Virus record (IMG/VR): IMGVR_UViG_3300028591_002545
Location: 1 to 38,660 of that record
Reading direction: 5' to 3' (one strand)
Source: a virus
DNA length: 38,660 nt
The notes under the pieces are model-generated. The model searched no databases. It was not told the DNA's origin and was given only the letters and a program-made list of their open reading frames with translations. Positions 11,377 to 28,364 of this stretch are shown piece after piece; positions within the stretch are counted from its first letter, which is position 1, and each line of letters opens with the position of its first letter. The position numbers and the translations under genes were made by a program.

Positions 11377-11694
11377 ATGATAACGATTATCGAGCTTTTG
11401 AAAAAGTACAGGGAGGTGGTTATTAGCCGTTACAACCGCGCAAGCAAGCAGCACACATCCCTCAAGAACTTCATGAACCTGGTGATTAAGTTCTTCGATG
11501 AGCATCCTGGCATTACCCGCAAGTGTTTGAAGAAGGCCAATGCAGGTAGCACTCATGAGTTTATCTACCAACTCAACAAAGCTTGTGACTTCGCAGCTTA
11601 TGTGGCTGCTGCACCCGCACGCAGACAAAACGCAATCGAAAGATATAACAATGTCGCTGGAGCTGAAACTTTAAAGCATCAAAATTACCTTTAA
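11377..11694 (+). CDS. Hypothetical helical protein (moron gene 1)
   Basis: 105-aa ORF between its own promoter and the downstream HTH gene. Confidence 0.6.
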   Translation: MITIIELLKKYREVVISRYNRASKQHTSLKNFMNLVIKFFDEHPGITRKCLKKANAGSTHEFIYQLNKACDFAAYVAAAPARRQNAIERYNNVAGAETLKHQNYL

Positions 11695-11718
11695 TATTAA
11701 CCTAAAAATATATTTGTC

Positions 11719-12156
11719 ATGAGTTTAAGAAGTCCGAAAAACCCTTACAGGGTAGAGATTAATTATGACAAGCCACTGGAATTTGGCAACGTGTCAAGTT
11801 ACACGGGCGAAAGTGTTGAGAATGTGCTGCACCTTGCTATTGGTGAGATAAAGCGTAACAACACTTCAGCATACATCCGCATTTGGCACAATGATGCTGG
11901 ATTCCCCAACTTTGACTGGCAGATTGTGAGCGAGGCCTACTACAAGGCCAACGGAACCGAGGATGTGAACCGCAATATCGGCATCCGTATTGCCTGCCTC
12001 CGCCGTGAGGCTGGCCTCACCCAAACCCAGCTTGCCGACAAGTGCGGCATGGCACAACCCAACATCGCCCGCATCGAGGCTGGAACGTATGCCACCAGCA
12101 TCGACGTATTGAGCCGCATCGCCGAGGCATTGGGCAAACGTATTGAACTGGTATAA
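11719..12156 (+). CDS. Unknown N-terminal domain fused to a C-terminal XRE-type HTH (moron gene 2)
   Basis: C-terminal GLTQTQLADKCGMAQPNIARIEAG...IDVLSRIAEALG is a classic XRE HTH. The first ~85 aa match nothing I recognise. Confidence 0.7.
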   Translation: MSLRSPKNPYRVEINYDKPLEFGNVSSYTGESVENVLHLAIGEIKRNNTSAYIRIWHNDAGFPNFDWQIVSEAYYKANGTEDVNRNIGIRIACLRREAGLTQTQLADKCGMAQPNIARIEAGTYATSIDVLSRIAEALGKRIELV

Positions 12157-12414: not shown

Positions 12415-12519
12415 GGGGAATGTATAACGAAAGGGTAACGAATGGGTAGTTAGTAAGGGCGATTTCAGTTGTTCGGCATTGTCGAACTACCCAAACAATA
12501 CCATATTGTTATACTTTTT

Positions 12520-12538
12520 TTTGGTGCTATTTTGGTGC
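12520..12538 (+). repeat. Tandem pair of TTTGGTGC (11-nt register), right set
   Basis: TTTGGTGC at 12520-27 and 12531-38, 202 nt from the left set and in the same orientation. Confidence 0.8.
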
Positions 12539-12552
12539 TTGTGCTATCTTTG
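12520..12552 (+). promoter_or_regulatory. Bacteroidota-type promoter for the integrase gene
   Basis: TTTG at 12520-23 and TATCTTTG at 12545-52, 21 nt apart. ATG 12583 lies 30 nt downstream. Confidence 0.55.
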
Positions 12553-12582
12553 CAGCCGTTAACCCATTCAATCAAGGTCAAA

Positions 12583-13647
12583 ATGAAGAAACAATCGGTA
12601 ATACTGAGGAAGCGGAGAATGCCATCAGGCAACATGTCGCTCTACCTGTGCATCTATGCCGGTGGTGTGCGAACATACGAATATCTGCACCTGTATCTTT
12701 CGCCCGACAAACGGGACAAGGAGAAGAACCGCGAGACGATGATGCTTGCCGAGGCGATCTGCGCTAAGCGGCTGGTTGAAGTCCGCAACGGCCAGTATGG
12801 ATTCAAGGAAGCACAGGCCGTGCAGCTTCGTGACTATGTGCAGCGCATCACCGAAGACAAGCACGGCAGCACCAAGCGCAGGTATGACGCACTGGACAAC
12901 ATCCTCGCAGGGTATTGCCGACCATCCATGATGCTGACGGACATCACCCCGGCATGGTTCAGCGGATTCATGAACCACCTCGACAAGCAGGGCCTCGCCA
13001 AGAACACGCTGGCCGTATATGTGGCAACCATGCGCAGCATCATCAGCCAGGCACACAGGGAAGGGTTACTACCGACCAACCCAATTGTGGGTATCAAGGG
13101 CGTGGGATATGAGGAAACGAACCGCACCTACCTCACCACTGACGAGGTGCGGAAGCTGGCAGACACACCATGCCCCAACGAGGTCACCAAACGAGCCTTT
13201 TTGTTCGGGTGCCTGACTGGTCTGCGCAACTGCGACATCCGTGCTTTGACATGGGCCGATGTTCACGAACAAGACGGATATACCCGAATCATCTACCGCC
13301 AAGCCAAGACCAAAGGCCAAGAATATCTTGACATATCCGCACAGGCTGCATCGTTGATGGGTGAGCGAGGAAGTGATAATGAGCCAGTGTTCCCGCTGAT
13401 GAGCTGGCACGCAGTACGTCAGCAGCTGAAGGCTTGGGTTAAGAGAGCCAAAATCGCCAAGCACGTCACCTTTCACGCAAGCCGCCACACCTTTGCAGTG
13501 ATGATGTTGTCGGTCACCGACATCTACACCGTTTCAAAGCTGCTTGGGCATCGGGAACTATCCACAACGCAGGTCTATGCCAAAGTGCTTGACAAGGCCA
13601 AGCGGGAGGCCGTTGACAATATGCCCGATTTGCTGAAAACGCCATAA
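12583..13647 (+). CDS. int: Tyrosine site-specific integrase (Bacteroidota IntDOT-like, with N-terminal arm-binding domain)
   Basis: Start MKKQSVILRK. Arm-type N-terminus SLYLCIYAGGVRTYEYLHLYL. Catalytic residues in LTGLRNCDI (Arg), HASRHTFA (His-x-x-Arg) and LGHRELSTTQVYA (His, Tyr). The track ORF from TTG 12469 is rejected as the start. Confidence 0.9.
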   Translation: MKKQSVILRKRRMPSGNMSLYLCIYAGGVRTYEYLHLYLSPDKRDKEKNRETMMLAEAICAKRLVEVRNGQYGFKEAQAVQLRDYVQRITEDKHGSTKRRYDALDNILAGYCRPSMMLTDITPAWFSGFMNHLDKQGLAKNTLAVYVATMRSIISQAHREGLLPTNPIVGIKGVGYEETNRTYLTTDEVRKLADTPCPNEVTKRAFLFGCLTGLRNCDIRALTWADVHEQDGYTRIIYRQAKTKGQEYLDISAQAASLMGERGSDNEPVFPLMSWHAVRQQLKAWVKRAKIAKHVTFHASRHTFAVMMLSVTDIYTVSKLLGHRELSTTQVYAKVLDKAKREAVDNMPDLLKTP

Positions 13648-13762: not shown

Positions 13763-14032
13763 CTATTGTACCCGCGTGAGCGATTCTATAACCCTCTGCT
13801 GGCTCTCGATGATGGCCAGCAGCCTTGACACCGTGTCAGGTTCTCTCACTTCGGCTGGCGGCTCTGGTAGAATCTTTAACAGTCGGTTAATGGCTTCGAC
13901 CTGCACAGGCTTCGGCTTCGACACACCTGCTTCCCAATTTTGGATCGTGCGTGACGATACCCCCACGATTTGCGCCAACTCATTCTGCGAAAAACCGAGT
14001 CTATCCCTTGCTTGTTTCACGTCCATAGTCAC
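13763..14032 (-). CDS. XRE-family HTH protein co-transcribed with the repressor
   Basis: LGFSQNELAQIVGVSSRTIQNWEAG. Its start overlaps the stop of the upstream CI-like gene. Confidence 0.75.
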   Translation of the reverse strand: MTMDVKQARDRLGFSQNELAQIVGVSSRTIQNWEAGVSKPKPVQVEAINRLLKILPEPPAEVREPDTVSRLLAIIESQQRVIESLTRVQ

Positions 14033-14685
14033 ATCTTAATCTTCAACGACAACACATTCTCCACGATGAACAAGTGCCTGATGCTGGTCTTTGCGAGGCG
14101 CATATCATCGTATCTCTCATTCTCGCTGCGCAGTATGACGTAGTGCTGCTCGTCCTCATCTTTGCGCAGGTACTTGAGCAGTCGGTACTCGTCAGTGATG
14201 ACCAGGTACACCTGCCCGTAGAAAATCTCGCCAAGGTTCTTGACCTCCCGCACGGCTATCCAGTCACCGTCCTTGATGTGCGGCTCCATGCTGTCACCGT
14301 TGGCACGGATGATGGCGGCAGTCGGTGACACATTCGGCAGATTGACGTGGCCGATGATATGCTCATCAGCGAACACGATAGGCCGAGACAGGTCACCGCA
14401 GGTGGCATCAATGTTATAGACCGGGGTGCCATGCTCAGTGATTTCGACAACCTCTTTGGTTGACTGCTTTATCATTTCCCCATCGCCAGTCAATAACCAT
14501 GCGGCATTCAATCCAAACTCGTTTGCCCATTTTATGGCATTCTGCTTGCCAAAAGGTTTGCGCCCTGTTAAAAGGCTGTTTATCGCTTGTTTAGTAACAC
14601 CAAACCTCTTTGCAATTTCTTCTTGCGTCAAGCCCAAATTTGTTAGATACCTGCGCAATTCGTTTAGTCTTTCGTTTGCTTCCAT
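14029..14685 (-). CDS. CI-like repressor: HTH plus S24 (LexA-type) autopeptidase domain
   Basis: HTH LTQEEIAKRFGVTKQAINSLLTG. S24 Ser in ANGDSMEP and Lys in LLKYLRK. Divergent from the early operon. Confidence 0.9.
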   Translation of the reverse strand: MEANERLNELRRYLTNLGLTQEEIAKRFGVTKQAINSLLTGRKPFGKQNAIKWANEFGLNAAWLLTGDGEMIKQSTKEVVEITEHGTPVYNIDATCGDLSRPIVFADEHIIGHVNLPNVSPTAAIIRANGDSMEPHIKDGDWIAVREVKNLGEIFYGQVYLVITDEYRLLKYLRKDEDEQHYVILRSENERYDDMRLAKTSIRHLFIVENVLSLKIKM

Positions 14686-15512: not shown

Positions 15513-15809
15513 ATGAACACTAAATTATTGAACAAGAAAATCATTGCACGCATCGAGCGTGCAGGTGTGTTCCACGGAACACTGGACTACATTGACGGTG
15601 AAATTATACGTCTCAAGGACGCACGCCGCATCTACTACTGGAATGGCGCATTGTCAGTCACCGACATGGCGGCGAAAGGTCTCACGGGCGGTAAAATCTC
15701 CATCCCTGTATCAACCGTAGAGTTCATGTCGCCGATGATTACTGAGTTGAACGAGTGTAGCGTCGAGGCTACAAAGTCCATTGAAGCCATCGAGGTATGG
15801 AAGAACTGA
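15513..15809 (+). CDS. Hypothetical protein
   Basis: 98-aa ORF overlapping the next gene by 13 nt. Confidence 0.55.
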   Translation: MNTKLLNKKIIARIERAGVFHGTLDYIDGEIIRLKDARRIYYWNGALSVTDMAAKGLTGGKISIPVSTVEFMSPMITELNECSVEATKSIEAIEVWKN

Positions 15810-16567
15810 TAAAATCGTTCCTTGCTGATTGTCGCGGCAACGGCTACGGCTACGGCAACGGCAACGGCTACGGCAACGGCAACGGAGACGGCAACGGCGA
15901 CGGCTACGGCAACGGCTACGGCGACGGCTACGGCGACGGCAACGGCTACGGCAACGGCGACGGCTACGGCGACGGCTACGGCAACGGCGACGGCTACGGC
16001 AACGGCTACGGCGACGGCGACGGCGACGGCGACGGCTACGGCAACGGCTACGGCGACGGCTACGGCAACGGCGACGGCTACGGCGACGGCGACGGCAACT
16101 TATTATCCCTCACCAAAGTCGGCGAGGATAAAATTTACAACATTGACGATGTGCCGACAGCCATTGACAGCATCAAGGGAAACATCGCAAAAGGCCGTAT
16201 CCTCAACGCTGACATGACGTTCACACCCTGCTGGGTAGTCCGTATCGGCAACTCATTCGCCCACGGCGAAACCCTGCACGATGCACAACGTGACGCACAA
16301 CAGAAGCACATGAGAACGGCAAGCGAGGAAGACCGCCTCAAGATGTTTGTCGAGCAGTTCCCCGACCAAGACAAGAAGATTCCTGCAAAGTTGCTCTTTG
16401 ACTGGCACAACATCCTCACAGGTTCGTGCCTGATGGGGCGCAAGCACTGGTGCGAGCAGATGGGCATCGACATCGAGAACGATACCTTCACCGTCAAGGA
16501 GTTCATCAAACTGACAAAGGATGCCTATGGAGGTGAGACCATCAAGAAATTGACAGGCTATTACTAA
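15797..16567 (+). CDS. Protein with an 88-aa Gly-(Asn/Tyr/Asp) dipeptide-repeat tract and a ~165-aa C-terminal globular domain
   Basis: 256-aa ORF. The repeat tract occupies residues 14-101 and is followed by non-repetitive sequence (FTPCWVVRIGNSFAHGETLHDA...). Confidence 0.7.
   Translation: MEELIKSFLADCRGNGYGYGNGNGYGNGNGDGNGDGYGNGYGDGYGDGNGYGNGDGYGDGYGNGDGYGNGYGDGDGDGDGYGNGYGDGYGNGDGYGDGDGNLLSLTKVGEDKIYNIDDVPTAIDSIKGNIAKGRILNADMTFTPCWVVRIGNSFAHGETLHDAQRDAQQKHMRTASEEDRLKMFVEQFPDQDKKIPAKLLFDWHNILTGSCLMGRKHWCEQMGIDIENDTFTVKEFIKLTKDAYGGETIKKLTGYY
15836..16099 (+). repeat. 44 tandem hexamers GGC-NAC (N = A, T or G)
   Basis: Read directly. 43 of 44 Gly codons are GGC (one GGA at 15884-86). Every second codon is AAC, TAC or GAC. 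Confidence 0.95.
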
Positions 16568-20499: not shown

Positions 20500-21177
20500 A
20501 TGATTATGAAAAAATTGATTTTAACAGCTATCGCAATGTTGGCACTCAATGCCAACGCAGAGTCGGCCATCTACACCGACGAGTTTATTAGGTTGAATCC
20601 CGGCACCGCCGAGATGACGCTTACCATCAGCATGACCACCGACAGGCCGTGTGACCGATGGATGTTTGACCTGGTGCTGCCTGAAGGCATCAAGCCAATA
20701 TCCGTCACCCAGCTTGACGGAATGACACTGACCTATGCAGGTGACACTTTACAGGCTCCCTTGTGTGTGTCGCAAGACATGGCAACCATCACGTCATTCG
20801 TCGGGATCAACCAATATTGGAATGCCGCCACAAACACGATTGAAAACGGAGTGTATAAGTGGCAAGCTGGAAAACACGAACTGATGGAGATTACCTTTTC
20901 GGTGGCTCCCGATTTCCGCTTCTCGGTGATGTTCCTCTACGGCATCATCGACAATGGAAGTACCGATGTACGGTTCTTCAGCCCCTGCAACATCAGTGTT
21001 GGCTACGAGCGCGGTGACGTGAACGGTGACGGCCATGTGAGCATTGCCGATGTGTCGGCTATAATTGACCACCTGCTGGGTGGGGAACTTGACGAGTTCC
21101 AGCGTGAGGCTGCCGATGTGACCACCGACGGAGAGATTACTATTGGAGATGTAACCGCTTTAATTGATTTGCTATGA
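20500..21177 (+). CDS. Secreted protein with C-terminal dockerin-type double repeat
   Basis: Signal peptide MKKLILTAIAMLALNANA. DVNGDGHVSIADVSAIIDHLL and DVTTDGEITIGDVTALIDLL are dockerin/EF-hand-like repeats. The N-terminal beta-rich domain is possibly cohesin-like. Confidence 0.7.
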   Translation: MIMKKLILTAIAMLALNANAESAIYTDEFIRLNPGTAEMTLTISMTTDRPCDRWMFDLVLPEGIKPISVTQLDGMTLTYAGDTLQAPLCVSQDMATITSFVGINQYWNAATNTIENGVYKWQAGKHELMEITFSVAPDFRFSVMFLYGIIDNGSTDVRFFSPCNISVGYERGDVNGDGHVSIADVSAIIDHLLGGELDEFQREAADVTTDGEITIGDVTALIDLL

Positions 21178-21648: not shown

Positions 21649-21863
21649 CAATAATCATAAATGACTGTAACAACCACTGCACCAAGACGTGGCATAATTG
21701 GGATAATAGGCCTATTCCGCAGGTGGGAGACTTGCTGATTATACACTTTGGTGACTATAACGAGATTGCACAACAGGCAAAAGTGGTTGCCCGTGTGTTT
21801 GATGGCACAAGACCAGATATGGTTTTTCTAACAACTGATTACGAGAAAGGAGGCGAACAATGA
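21645..21863 (+). CDS. Hypothetical 72-aa protein
   Basis: Starts and ends within the repeated junction GAGAAAGGAGGCGAACAATGA. Confidence 0.55.
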   Translation: MTIIINDCNNHCTKTWHNWDNRPIPQVGDLLIIHFGDYNEIAQQAKVVARVFDGTRPDMVFLTTDYEKGGEQ

Positions 21864-22255
21864 GAGACAGTGATTACTACCCTGCCGGGGCATACAACGA
21901 TCCAAACGCGCCCTACAACGAAGTCGATACACCAGACATCGAGGTGGCGTGCCATGTGTCGGTTAATCTGGTCAAGGATGTGCCCGTGATGACCGACCAG
22001 TACATTACCGAATACGACGAGGAAGATGGAAGCCGCCACACTGAATTGATTGCATCTTACTCGGACATGGAGACCGAGTACCGCAAGCAGCACATGTCAG
22101 TTCCTGAGCTGCTCATGGAACTTGCCAAGTACATCAATGGCGAATTGGCTGGCGGCGTCACAGGTTCCCGCAAATGGGAACTGCAAGATATGCTTGCCGA
22201 CTGCCAAGGGTGGAAGGAGGAGTTCTTGGAGATAGAAGAATTTGAGCCCGCATGA
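21860..22255 (+). CDS. Hypothetical acidic protein
   Basis: 131 aa; the last gene before the long non-coding region. Confidence 0.6.
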   Translation: MRDSDYYPAGAYNDPNAPYNEVDTPDIEVACHVSVNLVKDVPVMTDQYITEYDEEDGSRHTELIASYSDMETEYRKQHMSVPELLMELAKYINGELAGGVTGSRKWELQDMLADCQGWKEEFLEIEEFEPA

Positions 22256-22284
22256 GCAATGCGAAAGTGAGTTTTTTCATGGCG

Positions 22285-22346
22285 CCGCCAAGTCACCAAG
22301 CGTGGTTATGCCCTGATGGTATCGTAGGCTGATACTGGCGGTTTTT
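22285..22346 (+). terminator. Branched hairpin followed by T5
   Basis: CCGCCAAGT (22285-93) pairs with ACTGGCGG (22334-41) with one bulge. There are inner small hairpins, followed by TTTTT 22342-46. Confidence 0.5.
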
Positions 22347-22437
22347 AAGAAGACACTGATTAATTTTTCTTCATATTGTTGTTTTTTTTAGGGTTAAACA
22401 ACCACCATGACCTGCGAAGGCAAATGGTGGAAACATC

Positions 22438-22514
22438 ACCGAGCTGACGGATTCAGCGAACATTGCATAGGGAGCCGTAGAGAACGGCAGAATAACCCGC
22501 CTGTCGTGACAGGC
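22438..22514 (+). repeat. Three-hairpin module, copy 1
   Basis: ACCGAGCTGACGGATTCAGCGA ... GGG-A-GCCGT-AGAGA-ACGGC-AGAATAA-CCC-GCCTGT-CGTG-ACAGGC. Confidence 0.85.
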
Positions 22515-22696
22515 AGTGAATTAGCAACTATTATTAACGCGCGGACATAAGAACGCGACCTTACCGTAGTTGCCTTCACACAGAGAGTCATTTTCCACGA
22601 TGTCGGGAGGTTTCGGCCTCCCAACCCATCACAGCAGGGGGTGAGAGTGGTGACACCTCACAGGAAACAAAAGCCTCGCACCCCTGCTGACACAAA

Positions 22697-22779
22697 ACCG
22701 AGCTGACGGATTCAGCGATGTTTTACAAAGATTGGGAGTCACAGCGAGTGACGGAAGAACCCGCCTGTCGCGTACAGGC
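22697..22779 (+). repeat. Three-hairpin module, copy 2
   Basis: ACCGAGCTGACGGATTCAGCGA ... GGG-A-GTCAC-AGCGA-GTGAC-GGAAGAA-CCC-GCCTGT-CGCGT-ACAGGC. Confidence 0.85.
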
Positions 22780-23002
22780 TCACGCAAGTTGGTACCCGAA
22801 AAATCGGTGCATCGCATCTTGTCTTCTAAAACAACGGGGGAGCAATCCCCCACACGAGAGGCCCTGGTTGGGCTGGCCGCATTAAAGTGTTAGATAGTTA
22901 ATTAGTTTCATTTTGGTTCTTTAGGGTTAGTGTTTCGTCGCGGTCATGGGGGTTCAATTCCCCTGCTCTTGCCTAAGATTATTGATTTTAAATTACGAGA
23001 AT

Positions 23003-23464
23003 ATGATTATGGAAACGAAAGTATGTACCAAGTGCGGGCGCGAGTTGTCCGTCAAGGATTTTTATCTTCACAACAAGAAAGATGGCCGCCGCCGCAATGT
23101 GTGCAAGCATTGTTACATAGAGCGTCAGAGCATCACGGGCGCAGTGGTGAAGCATCGCGTCAAGCTGCACCCTGCCAAACCAGAGGGCGAGCCAAAGAAG
23201 AAACGTGTTGCAAACGGGCAGGGTGATAGAAGCCAGTACACTCACAAGTACTACATCACCCACAAGGCCAAACTGAAAGCCAAGAATGCAGCCGACTATA
23301 TCAAGCGAAGGCTTGACATTGAGGTGGAGCGACAGGTGAACATCCCGACTGGCCGCACCTGCAAGGACAGCTGTATATATTACCAGTGTTTCACGGGCAT
23401 AGAAAACATCGAGTCGAACCTTTCCGTGACTTGTCACGGATTCAAAGAAAGAACCAATGCTTAA
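23003..23464 (+). CDS. Zinc-ribbon protein (possible transcription activator)
   Basis: CTKCGRELSVKDFYLHNKKDGRRRNVCKHCY (CxxC...CxxC), a basic centre and a second Cys cluster near the C-terminus. ATG 23003 is chosen over the track start 22946. Confidence 0.6.
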   Translation: MIMETKVCTKCGRELSVKDFYLHNKKDGRRRNVCKHCYIERQSITGAVVKHRVKLHPAKPEGEPKKKRVANGQGDRSQYTHKYYITHKAKLKAKNAADYIKRRLDIEVERQVNIPTGRTCKDSCIYYQCFTGIENIESNLSVTCHGFKERTNA

Positions 23465-23811: not shown

Positions 23812-24660
23812 ATGAGACCAGAGTTACAAAAAAAAGTAGAGTTTGGCATCAAACTGATACAGGCTGGAGCGCAGAAAGCAGCCGAGGTCGGTCAGCCGAT
23901 AGAGATAGCCTATTCAGGCGGCAAGGATAGCGACTGCATCCTTGAGTTAGCGAAGATGGCAGGCGTTAATTACCGAGCCATCTACAAGAACACCACCATC
24001 GACCCACCGGGCACTATCAAACACTGCAAGGAGAAAGGCGTGGAAATAGTAAATCCGAGTTTGTCTTTCTTTAAAATAGTAGAAAAAGAATCTCCACCAA
24101 CAATGAGGGCAAGAATTTGCTGCAAGCACCTCAAAGAATATAAAATCCTTAATGTTTCAGTCCAAGGCATAAGAAGATGCGAAAGCGAAAAGAGAAAAGA
24201 GAACTATCAAGAACCAACAATTTGCAGAACATATGGCAGCAAGAAGAACGCAGTAGAGGTGTTTCTTCCAATCTTGCAATGGGATAACGAAGATGTCAAG
24301 AACTTTGTTGAAGATAGAGGCATTAAGTGCCATCCTCTATACTACGATGATCAAATGAACTTTCACGTTGAGCGCAGATTAGGGTGTCTTGGATGCCCAT
24401 TAAAGAGTGATAGAGGCGTATCGGATTATAAGCGTTATCCAAAGTTGCTAAAGCAACTGGTTATAGCAACAAAAAAATGGTTAGAAACACATCCTGATGC
24501 AGAAAGCGCAACAAAGTTTGGAGACGCATATCGAATAACATACCACAATCTTTTTTGCAAGTCTTATGAAGATTTTCAGTATAGGATGCAACCGACATTG
24601 TTTGGAGACATACCTGACTGTAGAAAACTTCTTGAAGATTATTTCGGCATTGAACTATGA
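23812..24660 (+). CDS. PP-loop ATPase of the PAPS-reductase family
   Basis: PP-loop IAYSGGKDSDCILE and C-terminal RLGCLGCPL (CxxC). The composition changes sharply inside the gene. Confidence 0.8.
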   Translation: MRPELQKKVEFGIKLIQAGAQKAAEVGQPIEIAYSGGKDSDCILELAKMAGVNYRAIYKNTTIDPPGTIKHCKEKGVEIVNPSLSFFKIVEKESPPTMRARICCKHLKEYKILNVSVQGIRRCESEKRKENYQEPTICRTYGSKKNAVEVFLPILQWDNEDVKNFVEDRGIKCHPLYYDDQMNFHVERRLGCLGCPLKSDRGVSDYKRYPKLLKQLVIATKKWLETHPDAESATKFGDAYRITYHNLFCKSYEDFQYRMQPTLFGDIPDCRKLLEDYFGIEL

Positions 24661-25508: not shown

Positions 25509-26756
25509 ATGGAGAACGTTCAAAATATATCAATAACAAAGCTGGAGTTGAACAATGGGCAGGTCGAAGGCTTGCCCAAGAACCCCCGCTTTATCCGTGA
25601 CGAACGGTACAAGGCACTGGTCAAATCCATCGAGGACGCACCCGAAATGCTGCGGCTGCGTGAACTGCTGGTCGTGGAGCATGGCAGCAAGTTCGTTGTC
25701 ATCGGCGGCAATATGCGTCTGCGCGCCTGTAAGGAGTTGGGCATGGAGACCGTCCCCTGCAAGGTCTTGCCTGCCGACACACCCGTTGCCAAACTGCGAG
25801 AGTATGCCATCAAGGACAACAACGGCTTCGGTGAGGACGATTGGGACATCCTTGCCAACGAGTGGGATGCCGAGGAACTGCAAGACTGGGGCATGGAGTT
25901 GCCGATGGATTGGGATGTGGAAAGCAGCGAGGACGAGATAGAACGCAAGGCTCGTGAGTTCCAAGAGCGCATGGAGGCTGGCGAAATTGACGAGGACGAT
26001 GAGGAATACCAAGAGTTTCTTGAAAAATTCAAACTCAAAAAGACCACCGATGACTGCTATACCCCTGCCGTTGTCTATGAGGCCGTGGCGAATTGGGTGA
26101 GCGAAACGTACAGGATAGACCGCAAACACTTTGAACGTCCGTTCTATCCCGGTGGCGATTACCAAAAAGCAGACTACCCGAAAGGCTGCGTGGTGGTGGA
26201 TAATCCCCCGTTCTCAATACTTGCCGAAATTACAAGATTTTACAAGAAACACAATATCCGGTTTTTCTTGTTTGCGCCACGCATCAGTAATTTAAGTGTT
26301 GCAAGTTCGCAAGGTTTTACGAATTTGTGCGTTGGTGCGGGTATTACCTACGATAATGGGGCGATAGTTCCTACCTCATTCATTACAAATATTGAAAGCG
26401 ATTATATTGCCAAATCTTCGCCAAGTCTATACAAAGCAGTAACTGAAGCCAATGAAAAGGTGCAGGCTGGGCTTCATCGCCAAATTCCAAAATACGAATA
26501 TCCCAATGCTGTTGTTACTGCTGCAATGTTAAGCAAGTACAGCAAATATGATGTTGAGTATGGAGTGAAGTTCAACGAATGCAGGTACATCAGCGAACTT
26601 GATGCACAAAAGAAAGTTGGCAAGGCAATCTACGCAGGTGGGTTGCTTGTCAGCAACGACAAAGCGGCAGAGAAAGCAGCGGCAGAGAAAGCAGCGGCAA
26701 CTCAATGGCCTTTGAGTGAAAGGGAAGAAAAAATAATCGCTGAATTGTCGCAGTAA
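25509..26756 (+). CDS. ParB/Srx-like N-terminal domain fused to a DNA methyltransferase
   Basis: ParB-like LPKNPRFIRDERYKALVKSIED and VIGGNMRLRACKELG. Methyltransferase motif IV VVVDNPPFS. C-terminal AAEKA repeat. Confidence 0.8.
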   Translation: MENVQNISITKLELNNGQVEGLPKNPRFIRDERYKALVKSIEDAPEMLRLRELLVVEHGSKFVVIGGNMRLRACKELGMETVPCKVLPADTPVAKLREYAIKDNNGFGEDDWDILANEWDAEELQDWGMELPMDWDVESSEDEIERKAREFQERMEAGEIDEDDEEYQEFLEKFKLKKTTDDCYTPAVVYEAVANWVSETYRIDRKHFERPFYPGGDYQKADYPKGCVVVDNPPFSILAEITRFYKKHNIRFFLFAPRISNLSVASSQGFTNLCVGAGITYDNGAIVPTSFITNIESDYIAKSSPSLYKAVTEANEKVQAGLHRQIPKYEYPNAVVTAAMLSKYSKYDVEYGVKFNECRYISELDAQKKVGKAIYAGGLLVSNDKAAEKAAAEKAAATQWPLSEREEKIIAELSQ

Positions 26757-27160
26757 TGGCTAACGATGACAACCTCAAATCGTTGGGAGACCGAACAACG
26801 GAAGAACAACGAGAGATAGCAAGGCAAGGCGGCAAGGCCAGCGGACGTTCCCGCCGCCGCAAGCGTCAGTTCCGAGACGAACTGGAGATGCTGCTGCCGC
26901 TGACCGACAAGGGCAAGGACGGGCAACCCATCATCAACCCGCTCACTGGCCGCAAGCAGACCGTCCAGCAGTCCATCACGATGCAGTTGCTACTGAAGGC
27001 TCGCAAGGGCGATGTAAAGGCGGCAAAACTGATACTCGACACGCTGGGCGAACTGGTCATCAAAGAGGAACACAAGCACGAAATCGAGGGCGGCATGGTC
27101 ATCGTCACGGCTGACGAGATGGAAAAATCTGCACTGAAGAAGATGAAGGATGAGGATTAA
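26756..27160 (+). CDS. terS: Terminase small subunit (putative)
   Basis: 134 aa with basic N-terminus EQREIARQGGKASGRSRRRKR, directly upstream of and overlapping terL. Confidence 0.55.
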   Translation: MANDDNLKSLGDRTTEEQREIARQGGKASGRSRRRKRQFRDELEMLLPLTDKGKDGQPIINPLTGRKQTVQQSITMQLLLKARKGDVKAAKLILDTLGELVIKEEHKHEIEGGMVIVTADEMEKSALKKMKDED

Positions 27161-28364
27161 CGGCAACGACATAACGGGCAAGACGATTGCAGGGGTGACG
27201 GCAAACGAACTGGCGAAGGGGACACGACTCATCGCCAACAAGGGCGGCACCCGTTCAGGCAAGACGTACAGCATCTTGAAGATGATGCTGAACATTGCCC
27301 TATACATCCCCCGCACGTTTGACGTGGTGAGTGAGTCGCTGCCGCACCTCAAACGTGGTGCATTGCACGACTTTGAGGAAATCATCGCCGCCAACGACCA
27401 GCTTGTTGAAGGCCGCAACTACGAACTGAACCGCACCGACCGCATCTATTCGTTCCCCAACGGGAGCGAGATACGTTTCTTCGCTGCCGACAACTGGGGC
27501 AAGGTCAAAGGCTCACGCAGGGACATCCTGTTTGTGAACGAGGCCAACCGCATAGACTGGGAGGTGTTCCGTCAGTTGGATGTGCGCACGACACGCAACA
27601 TCATCATCGACTGGAACCCCGATAGCGAGTTCTGGTATGAACAACAAGGACTGAGCGGACGTGAAGACACCACCGAGATAGTGACAACATACTTGGATAA
27701 TCCCTACTTGGGTGAGACGCAGATTGCGGCGATTGAGGCCTACCGCACGGATGAGCGTTGGTGGAAGGTGTACGGACTTGGCGAGACTGGCAACCGCAAG
27801 GGCCTTATCTACACCGATTGGGAACAATGCAAGGACATCCCCGCCAATGCCCGACTGGTTGGTCGTGGCCTTGACTTCGGTTATCAGGCAGACCCGACCA
27901 GCATCGTGGCGGTGTACATCATGGACGGGGAGTTGTATATTGACGAGGAGTTGTACGCCCCCGGCCTCACCAATGACCGCATCGCCAAGTCGCTGACCGG
28001 GAAGAACGGCCCGATCGTGGCCGATAGTGCCGAGCCAAAGTCCATTGCCGAACTGCGCAACTACGGTGTGCGCAACATCGAGCCATCGGTCAAGGGTGCC
28101 GACTCGGTGCGCAACGGCATCCAGGTAGTGCAACGATACAAGCTGCACGTCACGCAACGCTCACTAAACATCATCCGTGAACTGCGCAACTACCGATGGG
28201 CCGAGGACAAGGTGACGGGTGAGTTGAAGAACGAGCCGGCCAAGAGCGAACACTTCGACCATGCGCTGGATGCACTGCGTTACTTGGTCATGGCCAAGCT
28301 GCAACAGCGCAGAACAGGCACGGCAAAGTACAACCCGACTTATCTATACCAGTATGGACAATAA
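27150..28364 (+). CDS. terL: Terminase large subunit (PBSX/Terminase_3-like)
   Basis: Walker A GGTRSGKT and Walker B ILFVNEA. Nuclease half with GLDFGY...DPTSIVAV and DSAEPKSIAELR. Confidence 0.9.
   Translation: MRINGNDITGKTIAGVTANELAKGTRLIANKGGTRSGKTYSILKMMLNIALYIPRTFDVVSESLPHLKRGALHDFEEIIAANDQLVEGRNYELNRTDRIYSFPNGSEIRFFAADNWGKVKGSRRDILFVNEANRIDWEVFRQLDVRTTRNIIIDWNPDSEFWYEQQGLSGREDTTEIVTTYLDNPYLGETQIAAIEAYRTDERWWKVYGLGETGNRKGLIYTDWEQCKDIPANARLVGRGLDFGYQADPTSIVAVYIMDGELYIDEELYAPGLTNDRIAKSLTGKNGPIVADSAEPKSIAELRNYGVRNIEPSVKGADSVRNGIQVVQRYKLHVTQRSLNIIRELRNYRWAEDKVTGELKNEPAKSEHFDHALDALRYLVMAKLQQRRTGTAKYNPTYLYQYGQ

Follow-up and report, generated by a model that had tools for sequence, protein, structure and literature searches.

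A gene-free interval with an unusually stable fold

The DNA analysed here, called the window throughout, is the whole of the 38,660-nucleotide (nt) virus record IMGVR_UViG_3300028591_002545 from the IMG/VR database. The element in question is a cassette of structured modules on its + strand, located between the early genes and a block encoding a Zn-ribbon protein, a PAPS-reductase-like protein, a resolvase and the terminase (Table 1). The cassette lies in a protein-free gap of 747 nt (22256-23002), bounded by the stop codon of the upstream open reading frame (ORF) at 22255 and by the next start codon at 23003 or 23009. A first-pass annotation, made from the letters alone, had described this gap as free of genes, of roughly genome-average GC content and filled with a chain of helices, and had proposed that it encodes a large structured phage RNA. 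The stop-free stretches reach at most 86 codons on either strand, and the GC content (0.49) equals the genome average. No genes were called in the gap of L182, an independent ENA assembly that is 100% identical across it, and none in the corresponding gaps of seven other contigs. Small minus-strand ORFs starting from the recurrent word TTTTCAT (= ATGAAAA) were rejected, as their peptides differ between loci.

The minimum free energy (MFE) of positions 22380-22985 was -215 kcal/mol, compared with -182.5 ± 6.0 kcal/mol for dinucleotide shuffles. This equated to a z-score of -5.46 on the + strand and -4.39 on the - strand. Nearly all the helices of the first-pass annotation coincided with elements supported by comparison between related phages (Table 1, last column). 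Three features were absent from it, namely an internal duplication, a tRNA cloverleaf at the 3' end and the modular build of the locus. The duplication is a direct repeat with a period of ~260 nt, and one hairpin changed from GCCGT/ACGGC to GTCAC/GTGAC between the copies. We consider it very likely that the locus is a selected, structured and modular RNA locus with a tRNA mimic.

Table 1 Features of the cassette in the window, and copies of the W module in related contigs (hp, hairpin; R1, covariance model of the K module; TLS, tRNA-like structure)
Feature	Position	Strand	Description	Helix in the first-pass annotation
U element	22272..22346	+	T-run and CAT, long irregular hairpin, T5 tail; terminator- or attenuator-like	hairpin plus T5, 22285-22346
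U outer stem	22284-90 / 22336-41	+
U apical core	22297-22327	+	31 nt, CAAGCGTGGTTATGCCCTGATGGTATCGTAG
Spacer	22347..22401	+	candidate promoter region; AT-rich, TTCTTCATATTGTTGTTTTTTTTAGGGTTAAAC
H1 hairpin	22402..22430	+	CCACCAT/ATGGTGG, inner CCT-GCGA-AGG (GNRA loop)	22402-08/22424-30
M hairpin, copy 1	22439..22458	+	CCGAG-GCTGA-CGGAT-TCAGC-G; 5-bp stem, loop CGGAT	22443-47/22453-57
K, copy A	22470..22514	+	GGG-A-[hp1 GCCGT AGAGA ACGGC]-AGAATAA-CCC, hp2 GCCTGT-CGTG-ACAGGC; R1 58.6 bits, E 8e-11	22474-78/22484-88 (hp1); 22499-504/22509-14 (hp2)
S domain	22516..22622	+	stem GTGAA+GCAACTA / TAGTTGC+TTCAC, conserved CCACGATGTC, hairpin 22605-22622; common to L175	22524-30/22567-73; 22605-10/22617-22
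X domain	22632..22689	+	9-bp stem CAGCAGGGG/CCCCTGCTG around GTGA-loop hairpin	22632-40/22681-89
M hairpin, copy 2	22698..22717	+	identical to copy 1	22702-06/22712-16
K, copy B	22734..22779	+	GGG-A-[GTCAC AGCGA GTGAC]-GGAAGAA-CCC, hp2 GCCTGT-CGCGT-ACAGGC; R1 60.7 bits, E 3e-11	22738-42/22748-52 (hp1); 22763-68/22774-79 (hp2)
W' hairpin	22791..22813	+	GGTACCCGAAAAATCGGTGCATC; resembles CACCCGAAAAGGCGGGTG of L189
H hairpin	22836..22851	+	GGGGG-AGCAAT-CCCCC	22836-40/22847-51
TLS	22855..22971	+	117 nt; acceptor 22855-60 / 22966-71
TLS D arm	22861-73	+	GCCC-TGGTT-GGGC	22860-64/22870-74
TLS 'anticodon' stem	22875-80 / 22940-45	+	closes AT-rich loop
TLS loop in anticodon-loop position	22881..22939	+	59 nt, AT-rich; contains TTTCAT, TTGGTT, AGGGTTA
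TLS T arm	22948-64	+	GGGGG-TTCAATT-CCCCT	22948-52/22960-64
W, L183	1805-1850		approximate
W, L186	1300-1350		approximate
W, L189	1730-1775		approximate
W, L192	1765-1810		approximate
W, L217	8375-8430	-	approximate

Known families and related loci

The first-pass annotation had recognised no family in the gap, and database searches likewise returned none. Rfam 15 gave zero matches at the gathering score across the whole window. At E<=10, positions 22200-23050 had no ROOL, GOLLD, tRNA or riboswitch match, and the sole meaningful signal above noise was the transfer-messenger RNA (tmRNA) model RF00023 on the T arm only (22949-22963; 12.9 bits, gathering score 47). ARAGORN found no tRNA and no tmRNA in the window, and blastn of the gap against 50,697 GenBank phages produced no match. 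Scans of IMG/VR with GGGGGAGCAATCCCCC, GCTGACGGATTCAGC and GGAAGAMCCCGCCTGT gave almost exclusively chance matches, and refined patterns for H and the tRNA-like structure gave the contig L001 only, or nothing. Metagenomes and genome collections were queried with a single 20-mer; the genome-collection matches (Acidimicrobiia, Nocardia) and the contig L174 were rejected as coding or chance. A literature search found no description of the cassette.

The 20-mer CCGAGCTGACGGATTCAGCG, which forms the M hairpin, occurs twice in the window against 0.01 expected. Through it we reached L001 in IMG/VR, a contig of the same phage as L175 from JGI, as well as the three JGI contigs L172, L173 and L176. The family is nearly absent from IMG/VR, and relatives were obtained through JGI, ENA and Logan contigs. 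In the 3' part, L173 and L176 share 92% identity with the window, and all sequence between the two 20-mer copies is missing from them; a deletion between the two M copies of the window would yield exactly the form found in L176 and L172. As one M-K unit is missing, the RNA of this type would be ~320 nt long. L175 belongs to a related phage whose syntenic proteins share 50-80% identity, and its cassette sits at a different genome position, directly 3' of a homologue of window 15797-16567. Two related contigs with tightly packed genes, L179 and L180, have no cassette, which makes it accessory.

In L172, L173, L176 and L181, a protein of 52 amino acids (aa) is encoded just 3' of the cassette. This protein has 66 homologue clusters, and related RNA modules were found upstream of its gene in 10 of 11 informative contigs, in gaps without called genes (L183/184, L185/186, L188, L189/190, L192, L193). 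The comparison covers ~10 lineages, all of them related phages. The 52-aa protein has no Pfam or PHROG family; its AlphaFold2 model is a small beta-barrel plus a helix (predicted local distance difference test score 91) and had no significant match in the PDB (best E 0.41). The window lacks this gene: at 22972-23010, the leader of the 52-aa gene and its initial codons (ATGATTA) run directly into the 5' end of the Zn-ribbon gene (ATGGAAACG), itself a gene with few homologues. Read from this junction, the window has lost the 52-aa gene by a deletion that joined the two. A second difference lies on the 5' side of the gap: L172, L173 and L176 differ from the window by an insertion or deletion comprising the 131-aa gene at 21860-22255; they keep only ATGAGAGATAG fused to GAAGAATACGAGCCCGCA, with the breakpoint at a repeated GAGATAG.

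The K module is preserved by compensatory change

K is the most widely distributed module after the tRNA-like structure. Its general plan is GGG-A-[hairpin, loop AGCG(A)]-RGAAGAA-CCC; 3' of this stands another hairpin, whose loop is of the CGUG type. The hp1 stems of the two copies in the window differ in a fully compensatory way, and the same pattern was observed across loci (CCGT/ACGG, TCAC/GTGA, TTGG/CCAA, TCGC/GCGA, TAGG/CCTA, CAGG/CCTG, CGC/GCG, CAT/ATG). We aligned 12 copies with the three helices written in. Paired cells made up 84.6% of the alignment compared with 65% in shuffles, both sides had changed in 10/14 pairs, and the covariation score was 0.447 versus 0.145 in shuffled alignments; 0/500 shuffles reached the observed values. 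When the partners were slid by 1-3 columns, the covariation score was at most 0.139.

The covariance model R1 recovered exactly these 12 copies (31.7-64.6 bits). No further match was found in 101 kb comprising the window and the related loci, in 214 kb of unrelated IMG/VR loci, or in the cultured relative Bacteroides phage BC679P3, whose 800-nt gap consists of unrelated AT-rich repeat DNA.

The purine-rich RGAAGAA internal loop suggests that K is probably a protein-binding platform. It bears some likeness to the kink-turn Kt-7, whose strands are GGCGAAGAACC / GGGGAGCC: GGG(G)AG stands on one strand and (C)RGAAGAACCC on the other, next to a flanking helix, and the 8-mer GAAGAACC and GGGAG are shared. 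However, given the helices that covariation supports, K would have a 4-nt bulge in place of one of 3 nt, and its non-canonical stem would contain only 1-2 Watson-Crick pairs. With respect to the G-A pairs of a kink-turn, a GA precedes the hp1 helix on the 5' strand and a GA follows the 4-nt loop on the 3' strand, where copy A has TA, a T replacing the G required in the first G-A pair. Loop length and the short non-canonical stem fit a canonical kink-turn poorly, and the resemblance is kept as a lead only.

A tRNA-like structure without an anticodon

The 3' end of the cassette is a tRNA-like structure (TLS). Single-sequence MFE folds of the last ~120 nt gave a cloverleaf in the window, L176, L172 and L181, and RNAalifold on these four natural sequences gave a 6-bp acceptor, a 4-bp D arm with a YGGTT loop, a 7-bp 'anticodon' stem and a 6-bp T stem with a 7-nt TTCRATY loop. 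The 'anticodon' loop shrinks from 59 nt in the window to 31 nt in L172 and a GAT triloop in L181, and is longer in other loci. Since its length can fall to a triloop, this loop is dispensable and holds no anticodon. Measured against a canonical tRNA, the 12-bp stack of acceptor and T stem and the T loop UUCRANN are present, and a 5-bp anticodon stem with a 7-nt loop is not. Neither ARAGORN nor the Rfam model RF00005 detected a tRNA in the window or at the TLS of L172, L176, L181, L183, L186 and L188. The only elements tested that passed tRNA recognition were one in L192 (49.5 bits) and the tRNA-Ala of L175. On the + strand, the T arm of the TLS is the only canonical one in all 38.7 kb of the window. 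We assigned the cassette to the + strand because of this T-loop motif and of the many G-U pairs in the helices, which become C-A mismatches on the opposite strand.

Further TLS were collected with a finder that requires a T arm, a 3' acceptor strand and its upstream complement (background, 2.5 matches per 77 kb of shuffled sequence), giving one to three elements per array. Across the acceptor and T-arm strings of 15 TLS, 92% of cells were paired, a percentage inflated by the partial use of this pairing-requiring finder; 11/12 pairs had changed on both sides and 0/500 shuffles reached the observed values. The diversity of pair types, and independent matches to a covariance model, are not inflated in this way. 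T stems included GGGGG/CCCCT, GATGG/CCATT and GGCGG/CCGCC, and acceptors CGAGAG/CTCTTG and GGACAG/CTGTCC.

The covariance model R2 was built from the four window-type TLS only. It scored the window TLS at 105.7 bits with no other match in the window, and found nine further TLS-like elements, in L175 (three), L188, L189, L192 (two) and L186 (two, weak). At 19.1 bits, the true tRNA-Ala of L175 fell in the same range as these further elements, and three TLS encode an ACCA 3' end (L001/L175, L183, L189). The L192 array itself holds a near-canonical tRNA in an array slot (1618-1693), with an Rfam tRNA score of 49.5 bits and a 9-nt anticodon loop, TTGGTTAAT, called Asn GTT by ARAGORN. In L189, a 70-nt element (1893-1962) is called tRNA-Ile(AAT) by ARAGORN and is unrecognised by Rfam. 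These two elements look like intermediates between a tRNA and an anticodon-less mimic. As R2 finds a true tRNA-Ala, TLS can end in ACCA and a sister array holds a tRNA, the TLS derive from tRNA genes. Judged on sequence, they seem to retain the top half and elbow of a tRNA and to have given up decoding. The acceptor and discriminator are variable (C1-G72 with C73 in the window, G1-C72 with A73 in L175), and G3-U70 occurs only in L188. L175 also has an extra TLS of 133 nt (11391-11519) that contains an AT-rich insert; it precedes the genuine tRNA-Ala(CGC) at 11674-11746 by 150 nt, the two lying ~1.3 kb before the main array.

An origin from tRNA genes is also what would be expected of DNA-level or decaying elements without RNA-level selection, such as remnants of a tRNA cluster, an attP core or an iteron origin. 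A tRNA and an ARAGORN-callable pseudo-tRNA in sister arrays, the repeated words TTTTCAT and GGTTAA in AT-rich stretches and the presence of an integrase gene fit such elements. We find this hardly credible: compensatory changes preserve helices in K, the TLS, U and W, and both the G-U pairs and the T-loop motif are strand-specific. An attP site containing a tRNA fragment was rejected on two grounds. The integrase gene lies at a distance of 9 kb, and for an attP the 3' half of a tRNA suffices, yet here the 5' acceptor strand is present and covaries. M is single-copy in the short forms and hence does not constitute an iteron set.

That only the acceptor and T stack, the T loop and the GG of the D loop are conserved, and the anticodon arm is free, would also be compatible with a tRNA decoy. 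Here anticodon-less mimics would titrate host factors directed at the tRNA elbow or acceptor end, be they defence toxins that cleave or modify the 3' end of tRNAs or enzymes of tRNA maturation and modification. The presence of one to three mimics per locus and the accessory, mosaic distribution, typical for counter-defence genes, agree with this. The unconserved acceptor sequences and discriminators argue against one specific identity-reading partner; a decoy leaves K, U and W unaccounted for, and we rate it as quite unlikely.

Other modules of the array

The U element, noted in the first-pass annotation as a hairpin with a T-tract, is conserved. Its apical core is almost invariant in L172, L173/L176, L186, L188 and L217, its outer stem covaries (CCGCCA/TGGCGG, CCGACA/TGTCGG, GGCTGC/GCAGCC) and the fold is identical in all copies. 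The spacer that follows is the only AT-rich stretch between U and H1. In L172 and L176 it reads CATATTTG, with 7/8 matches to the Bacteroides -7 box, for which the consensus is TAnnTTTG; a sigma-70 scan found nothing in 22347-22401. H1 keeps its GNRA loop in L172 and L176, where GCGA is replaced by GTGA.

One alternative is a cis-acting leader, with U as a conditional terminator and the array acting on RNA polymerase or on read-through in a put- or attenuator-like manner, switching on the late genes. U is terminator-like and its apical 31 nt are conserved far beyond the need of a plain terminator. The cassette stands between the early genes and the block leading to the terminase, in most loci 30-50 nt separate the end of an array module from the next start codon, and a terminator scan found no + strand site 3' of the locus, in agreement with the first-pass annotation. 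However, L179 and L180 express the same downstream genes without the cassette, U is located 3' of the TLS in L188 rather than ahead of the array, and the L175 array lies elsewhere in its genome. A tRNA-shaped element would be expected to be excised from a leader, and no similarity to a known antiterminator RNA was found in Rfam 15. A leader function is unlikely on this evidence.

The M 20-mer is identical in L001/L175, L172, L173 and L176, and a variant occurs in L188 (CCGAG-CTGCG-(9-nt loop)-CGCAG-CG). M was rejected as the 5' acceptor strand of a tmRNA-like fold, being not complementary to the 3' end in L001. The 21-mer AACCGAGCTGACGGATTCAGC, consisting of the M motif and its 5' flank, was also observed within 3032-3187 of L128 (IMGVR_UViG_3300028586_000760), a GC-rich contig from an unrelated phage; the surrounding DNA is non-coding and closely follows a divergent promoter- or operator-like stretch. 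The six extra matching bases are expected by chance in ~1% of such scans. Twenty bases past this motif is a near-threshold match to the Betaproteobacteria-1 RNA (RF02932; 47.2 bits, gathering score 49.4), and that covariance model had no match in window 22200-23050. From L128, M may be a module common to very different phages.

S and X are present only in the two-unit forms (window and L175). S is an insertion limited to A-type units and aligns between the window and L001/L175, with compensatory changes in its inner hairpin (CGCG/CGCG vs GGG/CCC) and its terminal hairpin (GGGAGG/CCTCCC vs GCCCTACTT/AAGTAGGGC). X occupies the slot of the middle TLS of L175 (13013-13091) and has no T arm in the window; it may be a decayed TLS. 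In the relatives, W is a pair of adjoining hairpins preceded by TCGTC; their loops, A(A/C)AAGG and TACGNAA(C), are conserved, and the module usually neighbours a TLS. The stems of its first (CTCCG/CGGAG, GACCG/CGGTC, CACCCG/CGGGTG, CCCAG/CTGGG) and second hairpin (CTGGG/CCCAG, CCACC/GGTGG, CTGCC/GGCAG, CAGCC/GGCTG) covary fully. W' of the window is probably a reduced form of W, the homology being weak. The H hairpin is kept in L001, L172 and L176, and reads GGGGG-AACATT-CCCCC in L181 and GGGGGAGCGATGCCCC in L186.

Word counts were made over the gap (window 22256-23002) and the arrays of L172, L175, L176, L183, L186, L188, L189 and L192. TTTTCAT occurred 13 times against 0.4 expected, in a single orientation only, GGTTAA 11 times against 1.9 and GGTT 57 times against 24, chiefly within AT-rich inter-module stretches and TLS loops. 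The spacing between TTTTCAT and GGTTAA ranges from 10 to 23 nt, making a two-box promoter unlikely. A CsrA-type sponge was rejected, as GGA was not enriched (75 observed, 95 expected). Hexamer repeats (GGCGAT/GGCTAT) in a coding region of L175 (12119-12341) were the source of spurious plant microRNA matches in Rfam.

Modules are shuffled, duplicated and lost

The order of modules differed between loci. It is U-H1-M-K-S-X-M-K-W'-H-TLS in the window, U-H1-M-K-W'-H-TLS in L176 and L172, M-K-S-TLS-K-H-TLS in L175, U-TLS-W-K in L183, U-TLS-TLS-W-K-H in L186, M'-K-TLS-U in L188, TLS-W-K-TLS in L189 and TLS-tRNA-K-W-TLS in L192; L217 has U-W-TLS, with K absent. This variation in order and number argues against a single RNA with a fixed global fold and for independently folding units.

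The first-pass annotation had likened the locus to the large ornate RNAs GOLLD and ROOL. Non-coding character, dense structure, + strand orientation and compensatory changes in related phages bore out a structured phage RNA, but one acting as a single large unit was not supported. The span from H1 to the TLS (~575 nt) is ROOL-like in size, the setting in a prophage beside tRNA-like sequence recalls GOLLD and ROOL (PMC5737381), the fold z-score is strong, and 22400-12 could pair with 22942-54 as a closing helix. Opposed to this are the lack of a ROOL or GOLLD match at E<=10 and homologues that are only 320 nt long or have another module order and number. The closing helix would form in competition with H1 and with the T arm; L175, in which an ORF extends to the M motif, does not have it. 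An ornate RNA of this kind is very unlikely.

The pairing itself joins 22400-22412, the 5' strand of H1, to 22942-22954, which includes the 5' strand of the T stem, with 12/13 positions complementary. In L172, 11/13 pairs persist despite a changed T stem, and the helix would form at the expense of H1 as well as of the T arm. The pairing may represent a switch, or may be coincidental given that the 3' strand of H1 resembles the T stem.

Genomic setting and host

The integrase gene (12469-13647) encodes the domains Arm-DNA-bind_5 and SAM_5, and a CI-like repressor is encoded on the - strand (14029-14685), from which the phage is temperate. Genes for SSB and an AAA_24 ATPase lie upstream of the cassette. 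Downstream are those for the PAPS-reductase-like protein, the resolvase, a ParB-like protein and the large terminase (27150-28364); the portal protein gene is at 1064-2218. The closest terminases come from Bacteroides phages (43-45% identity), which together with the integrase domains makes a Bacteroidota host likely.

Two further observations concern neighbouring genes. The pairing of a PAPS-reductase-like (PP-loop) protein (23812-24660) with a ParB-N-like protein (25509-26756), both 3' of the cassette, is reminiscent of the prophage regulators IbrA/IbrB. In L180, the PAPS-reductase gene occurs although the cassette is absent, hence there is no strict linkage. In the early region, the gene at 20500-21177 encodes a secreted-looking protein with a signal peptide (MIMKKLILTAIAMLALNANA) and dockerin repeats, an unusual phage cargo; Pfam Dockerin_1 is recorded for the same gene in the otherwise identical L182 (223 aa as called).

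A proposed precursor processed at the tRNA mimic

The reading we favour, although we hold it at slightly short of an even call, is that of an accessory non-coding RNA (ncRNA) cassette of a temperate Bacteroidota phage, made as a precursor that is processed at the tRNA mimic. The top half and elbow of a tRNA are the features read by RNase P, RNase Z and the CCA-adding enzyme, whilst the anticodon arm, acceptor sequence and discriminator are needed for decoding and by most synthetases. Processing at the mimic is proposed because the TLS keeps the first set of features and lets the second drift; the mechanism, cleavage by RNase P and RNase Z, is put forward tentatively. The whole array would be transcribed as one precursor. 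Transcription would start at a promoter within the AT-rich 22347-22401, or RNA polymerase would read through the U hairpin. RNase P of the host would cleave at the 22854/22855 junction, and host RNase Z, or exonucleases together with CCA addition, would act immediately 3' of 22971-22972. These cuts would release a stable structured 5' RNA of ~450 nt carrying both K modules, the putative effector part, and a stable tRNA-shaped RNA, both separated from the downstream mRNA.

Several points weigh against this proposal. A transcript of the locus is a prediction. No promoter was identified, the sigma-70 scan being empty at the 5' end and the Bacteroides-type -7 box imperfect. Pair 7:66 is unpaired in 9/15 TLS and the window TLS has no encoded CCA (CTCTTG-CCTA), which leaves its quality as a substrate of RNase P and RNase Z a prediction. 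K is not universal, being absent from L217, which has U, W and TLS. The independent lineages are few, and the pairing percentage of the TLS set is inflated as stated above. Processing alone would not account for the retention of the other modules.

A broader reading, which we think unlikely and offer as speculation, is that the arrays represent an undescribed class of phage RNA, natural 'tRNA-scaffold' arrays in which the mimics and K, W and M would form a small-RNA toolkit acting in trans on the host. The toolkit might comprise decoys for toxins or enzymes that read the acceptor end or elbow, or an RNA-protein platform, with the mimics giving processing and stability; this version too seems to us improbable rather than likely.

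Relation to known RNAs and significance

Non-decoding tRNA mimics fused to structured RNA, with ends set by RNase P and RNase Z, are found in MALAT1 mascRNA, in the tRNA-miRNA units of murid herpesvirus 68 and in the stable 'species 1 and 2' RNAs from the tRNA cluster of phage T4, which resemble the mechanism proposed here. The cassette has no sequence relation to these systems, and its processing is a proposal only. The put RNA of phage HK022 is likewise a structured non-coding phage RNA ahead of an operon, and the position of the cassette is compatible with such a role. However, put is ~70 nt long, with two stem-loops directly after the promoter, and differs in size and layout; no similarity to it emerged, and action in cis on RNA polymerase is hypothetical here.

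The TLS shares with phage tRNAs the cloverleaf with acceptor, D and T arms, the T-loop consensus TTCRANN and a location between replication and packaging genes, and near-canonical tRNA occurs in sister arrays. It differs in having a triloop to a 60-100-nt AT-rich insert in place of the 7-nt anticodon loop, a stack of usually 6+6 rather than 7+5 bp, a mostly unpaired 7:66 and an embedding among other conserved modules, and it is called neither by ARAGORN nor by the Rfam tRNA model. With the tRNA-like domain of tmRNA (RF00023) it has in common the acceptor and T arm and the replacement of the anticodon arm by a long helix; several TLS of the relatives also have a stemless D loop, and that of L175 reads GGACAGG-CTGGAT...ACTGTCC-ACCA. 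By contrast, the window TLS lacks the G3-U70 pair and 3' CCA of tmRNA (A3-U70, G2-U71, end CTCTTG-CCTA), a conserved tag frame and a series of pseudoknots between the strands of the tRNA-like domain, and ARAGORN was negative. A tag reading frame was rejected, as the loop frames differ (IKVLDS*, INDMSFA*, KLVIS*) and the loop is absent in L181.

GOLLD and ROOL comprise hundreds of densely structured nt and often occur in prophages beside tRNAs (PMC5737381; PMC12286853). The location of the cassette, in a temperate phage with tRNA-like elements within the locus, is of this type (PMC5737381), but it has no covariance-model match to either and no fixed architecture, its modules being shuffled, duplicated and lost. 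Phage tRNAs and tRNA-like candidate structured RNAs have been catalogued at scale in IMG/VR, among them 8,495 unnamed candidates (PMC10690425). Thus, tRNA-like structures and tRNA-linked phage RNAs are known kinds. What is new, as judged against Rfam 15 and the literature searched, is an anticodon-less mimic inside a shuffled array with K, W, M and U.

K, the tRNA mimic and the terminator-like U are all absent from Rfam 15; the family is supported by covariation, and the K model was specific to the arrays in the ~350 kb searched. Bacteroidota phages are abundant in the gut and rumen, and to our knowledge almost nothing is known of their ncRNAs. In this cassette, tRNA genes have been reused as non-decoding structural or processing units of a shuffled RNA array, a parallel in bacterial viruses to the tRNA-like processing signals of eukaryotic and herpesviral ncRNAs. 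A decoy or scaffold role, if true, would represent a new kind of phage-host interaction; if the mimics serve as punctuation only, they would explain how several small RNAs arise from one phage transcript.

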